A stretch of 64,000 nucleotides of DNA from Rubripirellula sp. (GTDB lineage Bacteria > Planctomycetota > Planctomycetia > Pirellulales > Pirellulaceae), in the NCBI GenBank assembly GCA_965216875.1, contig OZ244207.1, forward strand, positions 4,736,001 to 4,800,000, in the 5' to 3' direction. Position 1 is the first letter of the stretch. Each line of letters opens with the position of its first letter. The position numbers and the translations under genes were made by a program. Under the pieces are notes generated by a model, which worked only from the letters and a program-made list of their open reading frames with translations, did not search any database and was not told the DNA's origin. Shown piece after piece: positions 6,033-51,783 of the stretch.

Positions 6033-6220
6033 AACAAGATCCCAATACCCGAAGCGAATCACATAGAAGTCAAGGAGCAACATCTTATCCCAAAACGGAC
6101 AGCCATTCGGTGGTTCCCTGTGCGTGAACCGCCGAAAGATGCCATCCTGAATACCAGCGGTTTCTTATCTCCGTTCAGCGACACAAAAGCTGAATCACCT
6201 TCACCCCGCGGGAGGGCAAA

Positions 6221-8005
6221 ATGCGTGCACTCACACGCCACCTTTCAACTGGCCACCTTTCAACGGGCCTGTCGGTCAGTGACCGAATCCCGGGCCAACA
6301 CTACGAGCTACCCGACCATGTTCGGCTGCTCGACGTGGACGTGCCCGATTCCGTCCTTGATCTCGTCCCCGAGACACTTGCACGGGAAAACGCCGTTGCG
6401 CCTTTAGCTGTCGAAGACGACACGATCATCTGCGCGACGCCGCACGACACGGACGTCATGATCCAAGACAAGCTGCGATTCATTCTGAATTGCAATGTCC
6501 GTTTCATTTATCGCAGCAACGAAGAAGTACACAACTTCATCAACTTCCACTATGGCCAAGTCGAGGGTGAGTCGGCCGATTCGATGTTGCAAGAATTCAC
6601 CGACACCGCGATCGACTTTGACGACCGCGACAACAGCGGCGTCTGCTTGTCGATGGCAGGAATACCAAGCCGATCTCGCAATGTCGCTGCACGACGCGCA
6701 TCGCCAGCACCAACCGCTTCGATCAGTTCACGCCGAAACCAAAAAGCCTACGCATCACCCGAGCCAGGAGACGGATTCATGTTCTACACCATCGACGAAG
6801 GCCAACAGGTGTTGGCCTATCGCCCCAACGGGACCATTGATCTGATCGAGGGTCCCAAGCGCGTTTGGAAAGGCCGTTCGCGATTTGAACGCATGCCCCA
6901 TTTCATCGCACACCCGTCACAGTACTTGACGATCCGTTTTCGTGACGGCCGCGAGGAGACTCGCCTTGGCCCCGTCCAAGCATGGCTCGATCGCCGCGTG
7001 CATGATGACATCCAAGTTCATGATTGCCTCGACCTGGCAGCCAAAGAAGCGGTCGTCGTCTATTCGACCAATTCGCCGGATGACGAATCGGGCGCATCTC
7101 GTCGGATCGTTTATGGTCCTGGCTTGTTTGCACCGCGCCCCGGCGAATGGCTGCATAAGTTTTCGTGGCATGCATCGCACGGTGGTTCACGCGGCGTCGA
7201 AAAACGCCCCAACGCACTCAAGTTCCAACAACTTTGCTTGATGCCTGACCAGATGTATCACGACGTTCGCGATGTACGCACCGCCGACGACGCCGTGTTG
7301 ACCATCCGATTGATGATTTTCTTTGAATTGGTCGACATTGAAAGAATGCTCGACACGACTCATGACCCAATCGGCGACTTCATCAACGCGGCCACAAGTG
7401 ACGTGGTCGAGTTCACCGGAAAACGTTCGTTTGAACAATTCAAACAACAAACCGAACAGCTGAATGAATTGTCGACCTACAACCAATTGCTTCACCGCGC
7501 TAGCCAGTGCGGCTACAAGATCAACAACGTCGTCTACCGTGGCTACGGCGCGCCCGATTCACTGCAAGCGATGCATGATGAAGCAATTCAAACACGAACT
7601 CGGTTGCAACTTGAAAAGGCGACCGAAAAACAGGCACAAGAAGTCGAAGACTACAAGCTCAGTTGCCAGATGGAACGCTCTGCGCGGCGCCGCCAGGAGC
7701 AAATGACCGAAGTGCAACACGACCTCGAGACCAAACGTCAACAATCGGACGCTGAACTTGCCCGCAAGGAACGTGTCGCCGAGTTCTCACGCAACGAGCG
7801 CCGTGCTCAAGCGGAACTCGAATTGGAACTGAAACAGCGCGGCGACGAACAAAAACAGGCTCATCTGGAAGCCTTGCGGGGCATGCAGGTCAATCTGACC
7901 GAGTACCTGACCCAGTCTCGCGCCGACCAAGTGATCGAGGTCCGAGGCGACGCGAAGATGCAACCGGAACTGCATTTGGCCAACGGCAAGAGTCGGCCAA
8001 AGTAA
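6221..8005 (+). CDS. Fusion of a GspE/PilB N-terminal (T2SSE_N-like) domain, an MVP-repeat/SPFH-shoulder-like region and a coiled coil
   Basis: VPETLARENAVAPL...DKLRFILN...HYGQVEGESADSMLQEFTDTAIDF resembles PilB/GspE N-termini; RRIVYGP...KRPNAL...PDQ...VRTADDAVL resembles MVP repeat and shoulder; long E/Q/R/K-rich helix. Confidence 0.7.
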   Translation: MRALTRHLSTGHLSTGLSVSDRIPGQHYELPDHVRLLDVDVPDSVLDLVPETLARENAVAPLAVEDDTIICATPHDTDVMIQDKLRFILNCNVRFIYRSNEEVHNFINFHYGQVEGESADSMLQEFTDTAIDFDDRDNSGVCLSMAGIPSRSRNVAARRASPAPTASISSRRNQKAYASPEPGDGFMFYTIDEGQQVLAYRPNGTIDLIEGPKRVWKGRSRFERMPHFIAHPSQYLTIRFRDGREETRLGPVQAWLDRRVHDDIQVHDCLDLAAKEAVVVYSTNSPDDESGASRRIVYGPGLFAPRPGEWLHKFSWHASHGGSRGVEKRPNALKFQQLCLMPDQMYHDVRDVRTADDAVLTIRLMIFFELVDIERMLDTTHDPIGDFINAATSDVVEFTGKRSFEQFKQQTEQLNELSTYNQLLHRASQCGYKINNVVYRGYGAPDSLQAMHDEAIQTRTRLQLEKATEKQAQEVEDYKLSCQMERSARRRQEQMTEVQHDLETKRQQSDAELARKERVAEFSRNERRAQAELELELKQRGDEQKQAHLEALRGMQVNLTEYLTQSRADQVIEVRGDAKMQPELHLANGKSRPK

Positions 8006-10896: not shown

Positions 10897-11197
10897 GTAG
10901 GTCATGCTCCGAATGACGGGTGTTCGCATCAACCGTAGGGCCGTTTGTAGTCCAGCCTTTAGGCGGTCCGTGAGAAGATTCCGGCTAAAGCTCGGTACTA
11001 CGAACTGCCGGCTCACGAAAACCACAGCGTCCGCATCAACCGTAGCTACCTTCGCCAGAAGGTGGATTCGCTGCGTAACCGCTTCCCATCACCCCACGCT
11101 CTGGCGAGCGTAGCTACGGACGCGTAGGGCCCGACGCTAGCGCGTTCGGCTCACAAAGAATGATCGCGTGCCGATTGTCATGCGGAGCATGACCTAC
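10897..11197. repeat. Nested REP mosaic: inverted REP-A copies at both ends enclosing a REP-D pair, a REP-C pair (11042-11117) and REP-B
   Basis: GTAGGTCATGCTCCGAATGAC at 10897 and GTCATGCGGAGCATGACCTAC at 11177-11197; the internal units recur across the window. Confidence 0.9.
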
Positions 11198-14019
11198 TAG
11201 AGGAACACTTCTTTGTTGTGGACGATCGTTGTTGGCAGGTGTCCACTTGTGACCGCTTGGTCAATCACACGCTGCGCCGTTTCGTTCTTGGCGTAAACGG
11301 CTTCACCGGGACTCACGAGGTGATTCCACCACCGCTGGTAGACATCCACCAAGTCGCGTTTACTGGCCAAGACACTCGGGACGGCGTGCAACATCACTTG
11401 GCTTTGCTCGCGTGTTTCGAGCATGCGACGAATCGGCCCAGGTAGCAAAATCGCTGCCCACGATTCGGTCACCTCGTCGGCCATCCGCGGAATGATGTAT
11501 CGAGGCTGATTCAACGGTCCGATCGCCTCGGCCATCGCCGAAGCAAACCGTTCACACTCTTCCCGTGGTCGATCCTCCAAAAAGATTCGCACGTAGCCAC
11601 CGTCCCGCTGAGAGATTCTGAGTGGCGACTCCGCTTCGAGCAACTTTCGCCGCTTGGCAAGCGGCGCCGCGTCCTTGAGTGCTTTGCGGCCCACGCGCCC
11701 CGCATCGATGCCGGCCAGCGCCGCCAAGATGGATCGTCCAATCGCAACAGCGAGCGTTGCGTCCGTCCATGGCACGCGGCAACCGCGAAAGGGTGGACAA
11801 CCGCCACCCACTACCGTGCCGCGGATCTCGATCGCACGAATGGGGTCGGTTGAATAAGGATTGCCGATATCCCACATGCGATACACGTCGCTGCGTTTCG
11901 ATGCGCGAGCAATCATATCGCCGTTGATCGATTCGACATTGCCTTCGATCAATTCAGGTTGCATGTCGGTGAACGACGCGTGCACGTGCCCCACACCTTG
12001 TTCAATCGCACCATCATCACAGATGCCGAAGATCGTTTCATGCTTTCGCCGAAACCGATGATAGTCATCGAGCCCGCCGGTGAACTCGGGCGCCAGGCAC
12101 ACGACATCCCAGTTGTTGGCAAGTTTGTCGGGGGCATTTGGATCGAGGCGAATCGACCGACCACGCAATTGATTGACGGTCATCGAAGACGCGACGGTCG
12201 AAAGATCAACCAGAACGTTGATCTTGTTCGCATCCCATCCTTCGCCAAGTAGGCCGCGCGTTCCAACCAAACACTTAGTAACGCCCCGTTGAAACAGCTC
12301 GGTGATCATCTCGACGTAGACGCGAGGGCACCAATCACTCCCGCGGCCGGTGATCACACTGAACAGCCCTTCGTCCTGGCGATCGAGGGTCACCGAGAGC
12401 TGTTTTTTTTGAAACCAGAGTTTCGCCTCACCCATGAATCGCACCACAAGATCGACATCGACCAGCACGGTTGATCCCGTCAGCAGAATGGGGTCGAGCC
12501 GATTGGTCGTTTCGTCATCAAGAATCGCGCGAAACGCAGCAATCGCACCACCGGCTTCTTCATCCAATAGATGCGTGATCTCGGGTGACACGGCCGACGT
12601 CTTTTCGTAATCGGCGATCACGACCGCGCGCGTGTTGCTGCCGAGCAAGCTCCATTCGTTTTTCAGAATCGGAACCAGCGACCGAACCTTGTTGCGCGTG
12701 TACGCCAAGACTCGCGAGATCGGCGACGCGCACGGACGGCTGCCCGTTTCGGTGATCTGAACACCAAGCATTCGCAATCGGTCCGTCGCCCGCTCGGCAA
12801 GCCGGTGATCCTGCTGGCTTGGTGAACGCCGAAGCGCATGACGGGTGAAGCGATCGATTAAAACCACCAAGCGTTCCTGTGGCTCGATCGACGGTGGCGG
12901 TACGGCTGGTACGTCATCGGGCAACTTGGCGCCGCGGCGATCGAGGAACCAAATCGCCGAGGCGACAAAATCGGGGTCGCGGCCGAGAAAGTGCTGCCAA
13001 CTCGTCTCTTTGCCGGACGGCAGCAAACGGCCCGCCAACACACGCGCAAGCCAATCAACAAGCGATTCCCGCTCGTCGTCGCTGTGACAAAGCTCTTCGA
13101 CGAGTGCCTGAAACTGTTTGTCGGCCGACGCGATGAACTCGAGCTCTTCCGATGTCGGCGAAACGAAATAGGCAAGGTCTTGGTAAGGCGCGAGGTACCC
13201 GTCTTTCACAACGGCGGGCACCGGCACTTCAAAATCGACATCGCCGAAAAAGGTATCGTACCGCTTCACGTCATCGGGCTTGTGCCCGTCGCGATCGGGC
13301 GGGGTCGCGGTTAAGCCGACGACGACCGGCTGGCCCAAGTACTGGTCCACTTCCGAGAGGACACGGCCCCAATGACCCATCAGGTGATGGCACTCATCAA
13401 GGATCAACAAACCGATCGATTGATCACGAAGCCGCTGCAAGGTGTCGACACAACGATCGTGAAGCATCGAGAGTGCGCGACCGCCCGCCGCATCGTCGTC
13501 TCGAATGCGCTTGCGGTAGTACGAAAGTCGCTGCTGGTAGTAGTCTGGGTTGTGCGTGCGAAGGTCGTTGACCCAAATCTCGGCGGCCGTTGTGTTTTCG
13601 GCTTGTTCCTTTTCCAACAGCGTTTGCAACCAAAGATCGATCGCGCGTGAATCGAGCTTGTCGTCGGCTCGCGCGGGCAGCGTGATCGATTGGTAGGTCA
13701 ATGAGGTCAGCAGTGCCGGCCGGTCCGCAGAGGTGCTGACGATCTCGTCTTGCGAAATCGTCGAACCGGCAACCGAAAAGAGGTTGGCTTGCGATGCCCA
13801 TTGGGCTTGGATGGCTGAGTTTGGCGAAAGCACCAAAGCAGGCTTCTTGATCATGCAGGCCCAAAGGTAGAGCCCAAGGATCGTCTTGCCCGAACCAGGT
13901 GGAGCGACCACGTGGATCCGCCGCTTGCCGCCCGCGAGTTGCTCGGCGGCAATCGATTCAACAGCGCGTTGTGACGGCCTGAGCGATCCCTGAAAACGAA
14001 ACTCGGGGAATCCCGTCAC
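11197..14019 (-). CDS. SF2 (DEAD/DEAH-box, ResIII-like) helicase/ATPase
   Basis: APPGSGKT, LDECHH, LTATPP, LGEGWD and QLRGRSIR motifs; start GTG 14019 chosen. Confidence 0.88.
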   Translation of the reverse strand: MTGFPEFRFQGSLRPSQRAVESIAAEQLAGGKRRIHVVAPPGSGKTILGLYLWACMIKKPALVLSPNSAIQAQWASQANLFSVAGSTISQDEIVSTSADRPALLTSLTYQSITLPARADDKLDSRAIDLWLQTLLEKEQAENTTAAEIWVNDLRTHNPDYYQQRLSYYRKRIRDDDAAGGRALSMLHDRCVDTLQRLRDQSIGLLILDECHHLMGHWGRVLSEVDQYLGQPVVVGLTATPPDRDGHKPDDVKRYDTFFGDVDFEVPVPAVVKDGYLAPYQDLAYFVSPTSEELEFIASADKQFQALVEELCHSDDERESLVDWLARVLAGRLLPSGKETSWQHFLGRDPDFVASAIWFLDRRGAKLPDDVPAVPPPSIEPQERLVVLIDRFTRHALRRSPSQQDHRLAERATDRLRMLGVQITETGSRPCASPISRVLAYTRNKVRSLVPILKNEWSLLGSNTRAVVIADYEKTSAVSPEITHLLDEEAGGAIAAFRAILDDETTNRLDPILLTGSTVLVDVDLVVRFMGEAKLWFQKKQLSVTLDRQDEGLFSVITGRGSDWCPRVYVEMITELFQRGVTKCLVGTRGLLGEGWDANKINVLVDLSTVASSMTVNQLRGRSIRLDPNAPDKLANNWDVVCLAPEFTGGLDDYHRFRRKHETIFGICDDGAIEQGVGHVHASFTDMQPELIEGNVESINGDMIARASKRSDVYRMWDIGNPYSTDPIRAIEIRGTVVGGGCPPFRGCRVPWTDATLAVAIGRSILAALAGIDAGRVGRKALKDAAPLAKRRKLLEAESPLRISQRDGGYVRIFLEDRPREECERFASAMAEAIGPLNQPRYIIPRMADEVTESWAAILLPGPIRRMLETREQSQVMLHAVPSVLASKRDLVDVYQRWWNHLVSPGEAVYAKNETAQRVIDQAVTSGHLPTTIVHNKEVFL

Positions 14020-14030
14020 GTTGCGATCAC

Positions 14031-14813
14031 CTACTGAGTCTTGCCAAGTTTGCCGGCCGCCCAAAGCGTTCCGTTGGCCAATGCGTCAAGGAAGACTTCG
14101 TCTTGAAAGGTTTCGTTACTGTGCCCATAGGTCGTCCCGAAAACGCGAGCTTTACCAAACTGATTGACCCAAAAGACTGCGTGCTCTTTGCCTGTCTTCT
14201 CGCTCTTTGAAGTTGCCAAAACCGTTGTCTTGGGCCACACCTTTTCGATGATGTAAAGCTCATCGATTGCCGAAGTGTGATTGGCTGGAAAACCGTCCAT
14301 CACAGGATGATCGCCGGCTACGACTTTAATCGGATACTCGCTTTTGTGTTCGTGGCGGCGACTGGTGACCCCAAGGAACTCACGCCAGTCATCAACCTTG
14401 GCGTCACGGTAGGTGTGCATCGCACAGTGAATCACAACCGCGTTGACGCCTTCACGATGCGGCTTGGTGATCTTGCGAATGTAGTCGGCTTCGTCGGTCT
14501 TTGCGAAGCACTCATTGTGAATCACCACGTCAAAACCATCCGCCCAATCTTCTTTTTCATAGAGATCGATTTGGGCCGATGTCCCTTTGCCACCTTCGTT
14601 AACCACCGTCCAAGTCGCGACCACGCCGCGTTCCTTTAGCGCCAATTGCATCGTCTTGGATTGGTAGTCGTAGTCATGGCAACAACCGCCGGTGATCAGC
14701 AAGATGTTGATCGAATCAGACTTTTCATCAGCGTGAGCCGTACAAGCGGAATCCAACGAACAGGCTGCAAGGCAAGCCAGCAAGCAAAGTGAACGGTGAA
14801 GGAGTTTGAACAT
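14031..14813 (-). CDS. Secreted ThuA-like (class I glutamine amidotransferase-like fold) protein
   Basis: Signal peptide; ILLITGGCCHDY, DELY and GKARVFGTTYGH motifs. Confidence 0.82.
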   Translation of the reverse strand: MFKLLHRSLCLLACLAACSLDSACTAHADEKSDSINILLITGGCCHDYDYQSKTMQLALKERGVVATWTVVNEGGKGTSAQIDLYEKEDWADGFDVVIHNECFAKTDEADYIRKITKPHREGVNAVVIHCAMHTYRDAKVDDWREFLGVTSRRHEHKSEYPIKVVAGDHPVMDGFPANHTSAIDELYIIEKVWPKTTVLATSKSEKTGKEHAVFWVNQFGKARVFGTTYGHSNETFQDEVFLDALANGTLWAAGKLGKTQ

Positions 14814-51065: not shown

Positions 51066-51312
51066 GCCACACAAAGCATGGCTTTGTTGTGAGCGGCGAT
51101 TTGTGTGGGTCTTTAAACCAAGCACGGCGCGCGAAGCAGGTTGGAGGGAGGGGTAGAGCAGGGGAGTTCGCTCTGGCAGGACTTTCGATTGTAGTCGATT
51201 CGGTTGCCCGAAACAAAGCGAGTTTTGACGGACGAACCCACCGCCCAGGCTGGCTGTCCCCAATTGTGACGTCTCTTTTTTGGTAAAAACGCGTTACCAC
51301 AACGAGTTTCTC

Positions 51313-51783
51313 ATGTGCACCGTCATCAAACCTCCCCAATCCCTCGACACACTCGACGCGTCACCCAGCATCTTCCTTGCCGGCTCCATCGACCTTGGGC
51401 TCGCCGAGGATTGGCAGGCAACTTTTGCCGAGGCGATGAAAGACGATGTCGTCAACCTTCTCAACCCACGACGCGATCAATGGGATGCGAGCTGGGAACA
51501 GTCGATCGGCAACCCAATGTTTCGCGAACAGGTCGAATGGGAACTCGAAGGCCAGCGCAGGGCCGATTGCATCGCGATGTACTTTGCCCCCAAAACCAAG
51601 GCGCCCGTAACGCTCCTTGAACTCGGTCTGTTCGCGGCAAGTGGCAAGGTGATCGTCGGCTGCCCCGATGGCTATTGGCGCAAAGGCAACATCGAAATCG
51701 TGTGCGACCAATACAAGATCCCGCTACTCCCGTCCCTCGACGACCTCATCAAAGCGGTTCGAAGGTCATGCTCCCAACCGTAG
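51313..51783 (+). CDS. Nucleoside 2-deoxyribosyltransferase-like protein
   Basis: IFLAGSI....WQ, NPRR, QVEWEL, APVTLLELG, GYWRKGN. Confidence 0.85.
   Translation: MCTVIKPPQSLDTLDASPSIFLAGSIDLGLAEDWQATFAEAMKDDVVNLLNPRRDQWDASWEQSIGNPMFREQVEWELEGQRRADCIAMYFAPKTKAPVTLLELGLFAASGKVIVGCPDGYWRKGNIEIVCDQYKIPLLPSLDDLIKAVRRSCSQP

Follow-up and report, generated by a model that had tools for sequence, protein, structure and literature searches.

Why should a protein that looks like a small major vault protein (MVP) open with a piece of a type IV pilus ATPase? The question is raised by a gene at 6221-8005 (+) of a 64,000-nucleotide stretch of Rubripirellula sp. DNA (assembly GCA_965216875.1, contig OZ244207.1, positions 4,736,001 to 4,800,000), called the window here, to which all positions refer. 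The open reading frame (ORF) of 594 aa is uninterrupted, and its translation contains every motif named in the original prediction, made from the sequence alone, of a reduced vault-like protein fused to a PilB/GspE N-terminal domain. We find that residues 184-446 and the long helix behind them are, on profile and model evidence, almost certainly an MVP homologue, and that the arm ahead of them displays a selected copy of the linker of the host's own PilB. The best reading of the whole, which we offer tentatively from sequences and models, is a vault-like dome that would bind the pilus ATPase through this linker copy.

The kinship of the core with MVP escapes single-sequence searches: those against Pfam and the PDB gave no MVP or Band_7 match for the C-terminal part, the Pfam MVP_shoulder and Vault cut-offs are not reached, and PF11978 misses the gene in its own genome. 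A 15-sequence profile, however, placed rat MVP at the top of the PDB (E 7e-4) over MVP residues 467-602, the very stretch picked out in the original prediction; a more diverse profile of 71 sequences again placed MVP first, but at E 0.21. When the full AlphaFold2 (AF2) model was submitted to Foldseek, the top 12 matches were all MVP (E 2.5e-14 to 2e-10), with stomatin behind them (1e-7). The model of residues 184-446 (predicted local distance difference test, pLDDT, 95.6) superposes on human MVP 320-647 with Z 16.5 and a root-mean-square deviation (rmsd) of 2.4 Å over 243 aligned residues at 21% identity, compared with Z 14.0 over 108 residues for stomatin. Both kinds of comparison suggested with the original prediction, structural (Foldseek with the AF2 model) and by profile (15 sequences), return MVP first, and the homology that it proposed is supported by profile, structure and distribution. 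It had seen the last MVP repeat plus the shoulder: the shoulder stands, and the repeat region has to be widened, since all three repeats align in order with the last three of MVP, presumably those numbered R7-R9. By sequence alone these repeats are weak (pairwise shuffle p 0.04, 0.02 and 0.34). MVP residues 1-319 are without counterpart, so that there are three repeats and not nine. Relatives pass the Band_7 cut-off, and the cap-like helix is colinear with MVP up to residue 768, while the MVP helix, of 42 turns, is longer than the one predicted here (PMC3595041; papers are cited throughout for the portions covered). No transmembrane segment was detected (maximal hydropathy over 19 residues, 1.38). 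A homotrimer prediction for residues 186-515 scored 0.30, where the mark is 0.42, and is not used as evidence either way. Longer members of the family (P0131, P0136, P0137, P0140 and P0205; 610-809 aa) have three to five matched stretches, that is, more repeats; P0131 and P0140 pass the Vault_3 cut-off, and such members bridge the family toward full MVP.

What does the arm contain? Residues 33-115 match the Pfam family MshEN (PF05157, E 2.9e-10, over the curated cut-off), and in the model the folded domain, the second half of the PilB/GspE N-domain, takes up residues 29-112 or so, with a conserved helix (119-126) behind it, and aligns only with residues 65-145 of MshE (5HTL; Z 12.0, rmsd 1.9). 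An N-domain without its ATPase, as originally proposed, is therefore confirmed in identity, and its extent is smaller than the 135 or so residues first assigned to it. The Pfam search gave no ATPase domain, and TIGR02538 covers residues 26-128 only, with 24.7 bits for a cut-off of 675. The helical half that carries the tandem 24-residue motif for cyclic di-GMP is missing, and none of 170 fusion arms fits the pattern of that motif; the protein is neither a cyclic di-GMP receptor nor an ATPase. Residues 25-138 are 51% identical to a PilB-type ATPase of the same genome, the closest paralogue, encoded at G000:C1:4330868-4332625 in a pilB-pilT-pilB-pilC cluster (labels by sequence motif). The resemblance culminates in the 23-residue N1-N2 linker, in which the codons of gene and ATPase differ by 13 synonymous and 0 non-synonymous changes; the linker copy is, as these codons indicate, under selection at the protein level.

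We then asked how far this copy follows the host. An orthologous ATPase was obtained for 27 of the 29 planctomycete-type genomes queried, which with the present genome gives 28 fusion/host pairs; three pairs in which the copy is lost were excluded before the statistics, and the host-tracking numbers rest on the other 25. Identity to own-host PilB reaches 72% in the linker copy and 37% in the domain body. Own-host linker matches amount to 216, compared with 205 +/- 3 in within-family permutations (p 0.0002, a value overstated by kinship, since the families are non-independent), and the copy shares 8 of 30 rare host residues where 1.4 are expected. Recent gene conversion is ruled out as the source of these matches, because codons at shared residues are identical equally often in the linker (228/430, 53%) and in the body (373/735, 51%). 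Repeated recapture of the N-domain from each host is unsupported as well: fused and host PilB domains form separate groups (ultrafast bootstrap, UFBoot, 86), and since the fused domains stand apart, the linker matches arose in parallel with the host. To judge from these alignments, the linker copy has changed along with the host protein and was not re-copied from it. The constraint, being strongest in the linker, points at PilB at least as much as at PilM. As for the pilus or type II secretion link of the original prediction, the host-matched, selected linker copy argues for it and the gene context offers none. That prediction did not include the internal start, the other pieces borrowed by arms of the family (TatA helix, second PilB linker), the arm-less relatives in NAD/ADP-ribose operons or the eukaryotic members.

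The fusion itself is conserved and not broken between its parts. The N-domain is present in 106 of the 120 best of 1614 homologues, the remaining 14 being proteins of 355-474 aa, and a contig of another strain covers the entire gene with 45 substitutions and a net in-frame loss of 12 nt in the spacer, the frame remaining intact; homologue P0002 (590 aa) has the same in-frame loss. Among the best 80 of 155 GTDB loci, the N-domain is in frame in 63. The other 17 comprise nine loci of Myxococcota/Deltaproteobacteria type with a different arm, three broken by contig ends or an N gap, three long-read loci with apparent frameshifts, a natural loss in L057, and L076 with its arm in another frame. The named best matches are Pirellulaceae and other planctomycetes, and members of the family occur in planctomycetes available in culture (Limnoglobus roseus PX52, Zavarzinella formosa, Gemmata algarum and Singulisphaera GP187). 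It comprises 1372 clusters at 50% identity, with eukaryotic members in Aplysia, Lenisia, Paulinella, Picozoa, Pygsuia, Thecamonas and Lithocolla; a search for longer homologues (715-2040 aa) scored none, which is weak evidence. A FastTree tree with midpoint root, built from the 165 cores of loci and representatives without P0002-P0121, sets the arm-less bacterial members apart and unites the arm-bearing ones in one clade (support 1.00), within which the PilB-domain fusions form one clade (support 0.99).

Not every subunit need carry the arm. Among 82 arm-bearing genes (this gene and 81 loci), in which the internal position was located by one pattern in 76 cases and by a second in 6, a start-capable codon is found there in all 82: 73 ATG, 8 GTG and 1 TTG. 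It is preceded by a Shine-Dalgarno (SD) sequence of -4.4 kcal/mol or better in 65 of the 82; as a control, 85 of 726 Met codons inside these genes have one. All eight Val cases, representing about three lineages, are GTG, though GTG accounts for 73 of the 235 Val codons (31%) in those cores; the Gly codons upstream are GGA in 45 of 124 cases versus 289 of 1996 in the core. Arm-less relatives start at the same position as Met187. By this codon evidence the internal start signal is conserved, and its use in translation is very likely. A conserved start codon together with its SD sequence implies armed and unarmed subunits, and on the simplest reading a long and a short form are probably co-expressed.

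In relatives, the spacer and arm hold other pieces of host proteins. A copy of the TatA amphipathic helix was detected in 33 of 197 extensions and in 0 of 197 reversed ones, with a profile built from the TatA of five of these hosts; Pfam and NCBIfam TatA models match too. In 4 of 5 genomes the copy has the TatA of its own host as nearest sequence, and its identical codons (43/77) are at a level similar to that of the PilB linker. The linker of the second PilB is copied in 5 of 175 spacers and in 0 of 175 reversed ones, the copy in L018 matching its own host, and zinc ribbons occur in the spacers of a few relatives. None of these three elements was detected in the spacer of the present protein. 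An unbiased short-peptide screen of the 175 spacers against the ORFs of this genome returned the PilB linker in 10 spacers and zinc ribbons in 4, for a maximum of 3 in the reversed control; TatA and a kinase motif, with 2 each, are at noise level. Two further candidates were dropped: an 'arginine sponge' role for the spacer (Arg 9.8%, versus 9.9% in the core), and FliM-like and TrkH-like motifs noted by eye in Myxococcota-type arms, for which no host match was found. Most relatives, with or without a PilB domain, open with a conserved YKxxxxxGAL(N/Q)E-like motif, degenerate in this protein; this start peptide (arms of L021-L094) is common to planctomycete and Myxococcota arms. The motif is older than the PilB domain in the arm, and is possibly a subunit-subunit or half-cage contact. 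Elsewhere in the family, P0235 and P0241, sisters in the tree, have ahead of the core a lipoyl domain resembling the one in pyruvate dehydrogenase E2, by sequence a second instance of a host domain borrowed by a mini-MVP. These two and P0139 and P0267 are mini-MVPs of eukaryote type, with what look, by eye, like mitochondrial presequences.

How could these features work together? The gene would yield a 408-aa mini-MVP, translated from the internal start, and an armed form of 594 aa, and both would assemble side by side into a dome like half a vault whose wide rim carries the arms. SPFH-type proteins build half cages by lateral assembly and have the parts that face the membrane upstream of the SPFH domain (PMC13100048), a layout that would put the arms at that rim. 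Each arm would display a copy of the N-domain and N1-N2 linker found in the pilus extension ATPase of the cell itself. In Pseudomonas aeruginosa, the PilB linker interacts functionally with a hydrophobic patch of the N2 domain and promotes contact between subunits; it is called species-specific and is displaced by the phage protein Aqs1 (PMC13436744). A host-matched linker shown many times on a ring is what would be expected of a PilB binder acting in trans, and the many copies could occupy the N2 patch used by the ATPase's own linker, so that the dome captures the motor and keeps it off, or on, the pilus machine. Short subunits would limit the crowding of arms, the TatA-type helix of many relatives may hold the rim at the inner membrane, and an MVP-type pocket may confer sensitivity to NAD+ or ADP-ribose. 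Assembly into a ring or dome is likely, and contact with the pilus motor or platform somewhat probable; the N2-patch mechanism and the control by a ligand we infer.

Several observations weigh against this dome. The matching ATPase is encoded about 410 kb from the gene, and no pilB, pilT or pilC match was found in 79 of the 80 loci, the sole pilus-type neighbour being a weak ATPase match at the edge of L085. The occurrence in bacteria is patchy (4 of 61 relatives, and 13 of 401 genomes of the phylum), and the gene was not found in two congeners, whose genomes are 84% and 97% complete. Three of the 28 pairs have lost the linker copy though the hosts keep PilB, and the domain body also tracks the host, if weakly (p 0.026, a value subject to the same kinship). 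For the contact of linker and N2 itself, the evidence is genetic, joined by a model of low confidence, and comes from another phylum (PMC13436744). TatA, zinc-ribbon and kinase-like pieces are ill-suited to a role limited to pili, and in the nine loci of Myxococcota/Deltaproteobacteria type the arm has no PilB domain; for two Myxococcota-type arms tested, no host match was found.

Other readings of the arm have to be considered. It may dock on the platform, the N-domain and the helix behind it binding PilM or GspL as the N1 domain of the ATPase does, and not PilB; the dome would then be a scaffold tethered under a pilus or secretion platform, or a competitor for the socket. GspE's N1E domain makes a 1:1 complex with cytoplasmic GspL, for which a construct of PulE 1-108 suffices (10.1101/397794), a contact of the PilB N1D domain with PilM has been inferred from that pair (PMC11656802), and the retention of the whole N-domain in most of the best homologues fits such docking. 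The greater identity of the linker than of the body to host PilB and the lack of pil genes nearby speak against it, and we consider platform docking unlikely.

Alternatively, the arm could be a bait, a string of decoys that are matched to the host and draw in phage or toxin effectors directed against PilB, Tat or kinases, with the cage trapping the effector or sensing its ADP-ribosylating activity through the MVP pocket. Unrelated host pieces strung along one fast-evolving arm are what such a guard would display, the TatA copies with their host preference among them; the patchy occurrence, the ADP-ribose hydrolases beside arm-less relatives and the existence of phage-encoded PilB inhibitors (PMC13436744, PMC11656802) also agree with it. 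However, Aqs1 and Tip bind N2, which is missing from the fusion (PMC13436744), and no effector domain is present. In a PADLOC survey, for which 145 ORFs were picked mechanically and without background control and 4 then set aside because they were arm fragments or contained gaps, just 8 of the 141 flanking ORFs matched. Most of these matches came from generic domains (kinase, AAA or HEAT), and the protein itself had no match. No family member was found in IMG/VR, and a BFVD search returned only Band 7 proteins. Inheritance, moreover, appears mostly vertical, because the distances between cores parallel those between the PilBs of the hosts (Mantel r 0.66 over 28 genomes) and trpB lies directly upstream of the fusion gene in 10 mostly Gemmata-like loci (L023, L027, L029, L030, L037, L043, L044, L047, L050 and L055), the sole recurrent neighbour. 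Such a guard therefore seems improbable. A broader proposal, in which a vault-like cage of armed and unarmed subunits from one gene uses host-matched self-contact peptides (PilB linkers, TatA helix) to capture or shut off machines of the inner membrane, gated by NAD+ or ADP-ribose in the MVP pocket, is rather doubtful; if true, it would give the vault fold a programmable function in cargo capture or against infection.

The pocket suggests a further reading, namely a cage that handles NAD+ or ADP-ribose and whose arm does no more than address it to the membrane or a pole, the pilus link being incidental. Behind the keyhole loop of human MVP lies a binding site for NAD+ and ADP (PMC12280208). 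Pocket residues were mapped from the hidden Markov model alignment of the 15-sequence profile with MVP: K328 and P330 correspond to human K506 and P508, with Leu in place of R511. The equivalents of K506, P508 and D521 are kept in 42, 36 and 42 of 42 rows of the fusion clade, an aromatic residue is kept at the W545 equivalent (mapped by ungapped register), and that of R507 is kept in this protein only. The equivalents of R504, H509, R511, P565 and K573 differ, and by this alignment the NAD+ pocket of MVP is only partly kept. Six of the seven loci of arm-less planctomycete members (L102 and L104-L108, L103 being the exception) adjoin NAD/ADP-ribose genes (NrtR, NadE, nicotinamidase, KptA, PARG, ADP-ribosylglycohydrolase, Macro or Nudix), most of which the present genome has as well, dispersed. 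In contrast, 13 queries of this type matched in none of the 80 arm-clade loci, and such neighbours are found at none of 6 other arm-bearing loci; the exact tracking of the host PilB linker would moreover stay unexplained. This makes an NAD+-handling cage with an incidental arm quite unlikely.

Finally, the idea that the arm is a non-functional passenger or an artefact of assembly or annotation, and that only the 408-aa product matters, is very improbable and largely refuted: the SD sequence is indeed better conserved at the internal start (65/82) than at first starts (21/43), and the arm is split over frames in four loci of long-read metagenome-assembled genomes (L053, L054, L068 and L076, in the last of which it lies in another frame), but these loci resemble indel errors, the frame is open through the arm in most loci and in the independent strain, and the linker copy has accumulated no replacement difference.

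Features of the gene, with positions in the window
Feature	Position	Strand	Residues	Basis or remark
Whole gene	6221..8005	+		594-aa long product, arm plus mini-MVP
Shine-Dalgarno-like GGAGG ahead of the first ATG	6211..6215	+		Sequence; duplex energy -10.8 kcal/mol
Disordered N-terminal peptide	6221..6304	+	1-28	pLDDT <50 for 1-25
PilB/GspE N-domain, alpha/beta half only	6305..6556	+	~29-112	PF05157
Copy of the host PilB N1-N2 linker	6551..6619	+	111-133	23/23 residues as in the ATPase
Fast-evolving disordered spacer	6620..6769	+	134-183	pLDDT <50
Internal ribosome-binding site and in-frame ATG	6766..6781	+		AGGAG at 6766-6770, ATG at 6779 (Met187); predicted start of the 408-aa arm-less product
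Three MVP repeats	6779..7243	+	~187-226, 227-270, 271-341	Boundaries approximate, from model strands
MVP keyhole-loop equivalent	7169..7219	+		Profile alignment; loop lining the NAD+/ADP pocket in MVP (PMC12280208)
SPFH (Band 7) shoulder domain	7244..7555	+	~342-445	Foldseek, superposition
Cap-like long helix	7556..7927	+	446-554 (109 residues), then 559-569	Predicted helices

The gene stands alone, with a divergent TIM-barrel gene on one side and a convergent sulfite reductase gene on the other; neither a sigma-70-like promoter nor a terminator excess was found, and no RNA holder is listed. Elsewhere in the window, the gene at 51229-51780 (+) is 45% identical to a nucleoside-deoxyribosyltransferase-like gene of the mini-MVP operon of L106, and an ORF of 955 aa at 11197-14064 (-) has helicase-like motifs (Walker A, DECH). 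Four of the locus records (L024, L026, L072 and L083) are labelled 'uncultured Alcaligenaceae'; the genomes of L024, L072 and L083 have a planctomycete-type PilB, and that of L024 also such a TatA, so that the labels may be wrong.

What vaults do is still an open question, and the portions of the literature covered show no MVP-type particle from a prokaryote. The present family offers a small version of MVP, of 408 aa, in planctomycetes that are in culture, and its selected, host-matched peptide names a likely partner, opening the question of what vault-like cages catch to a direct binding test. Dual starts and a mimicry that tracks a paralogue, both on a cage protein, would surprise specialists of vaults and of pili alike.

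How does the protein compare with known systems? Eukaryotic MVP (human 9BW5/9BW6, rat 4V60/4HL8) has the same order of repeats, SPFH shoulder with a keyhole-type loop, and cap helix. The differences are a set of three repeats where MVP has nine, so that those at the N-terminus, through which vault halves join, and repeats 3-5, used in a PARP4-binding construct (PMC12280208), are missing, a shorter helix, the N-terminal arm, the internal start and an NAD+ pocket kept in part. The protein is an MVP homologue outside canonical membership, with three repeats and no Pfam MVP score. MVP homologues outside eukaryotes are known (10.1101/872010, PMC3595041, PMC3762200), including Asgard forms with five repeats (PMC12962969), archaeal forms with one (PMC13607799) and MVPs of phages (10.1101/2023.11.10.566534). 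They likewise combine MVP repeat, SPFH domain and helix, with an assembly that is putative as in the present family; they score on Pfam MVP models or differ in repeat number, whereas this family escapes PF11978, and the covered portions of their descriptions mention no arm, mimicry or dual start. No description of a planctomycete MVP-PilB fusion was found in open-access PMC or bioRxiv main texts, and members of the family could be present in the trees that supplement PMC12962969 and PMC13607799. The arm-less mini-MVPs of NrtR and NAD/ADP-ribose operons belong to the same family (about 42% identity for L007), but they are operonic and bear no arm, while the fusion clade is stand-alone and grouped separately. 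The membrane cages of stomatin, flotillin, HflK/C and QmcA are alike in their SPFH domain and long helix (Z 11-14); here there is no transmembrane segment, and there are two extra repeats. Closest in proposed action are the PilB inhibitors, Aqs1 and Tip of phages and CpiA of the host (PMC13436744, PMC11656802), with which the present protein would share its proposed target, the extension ATPase at the N2 patch used by the ATPase's linker. In the portions covered these are small, unrelated proteins, whereas the binder proposed here is the linker itself, in a copy matched to the host and carried on a putative cage.

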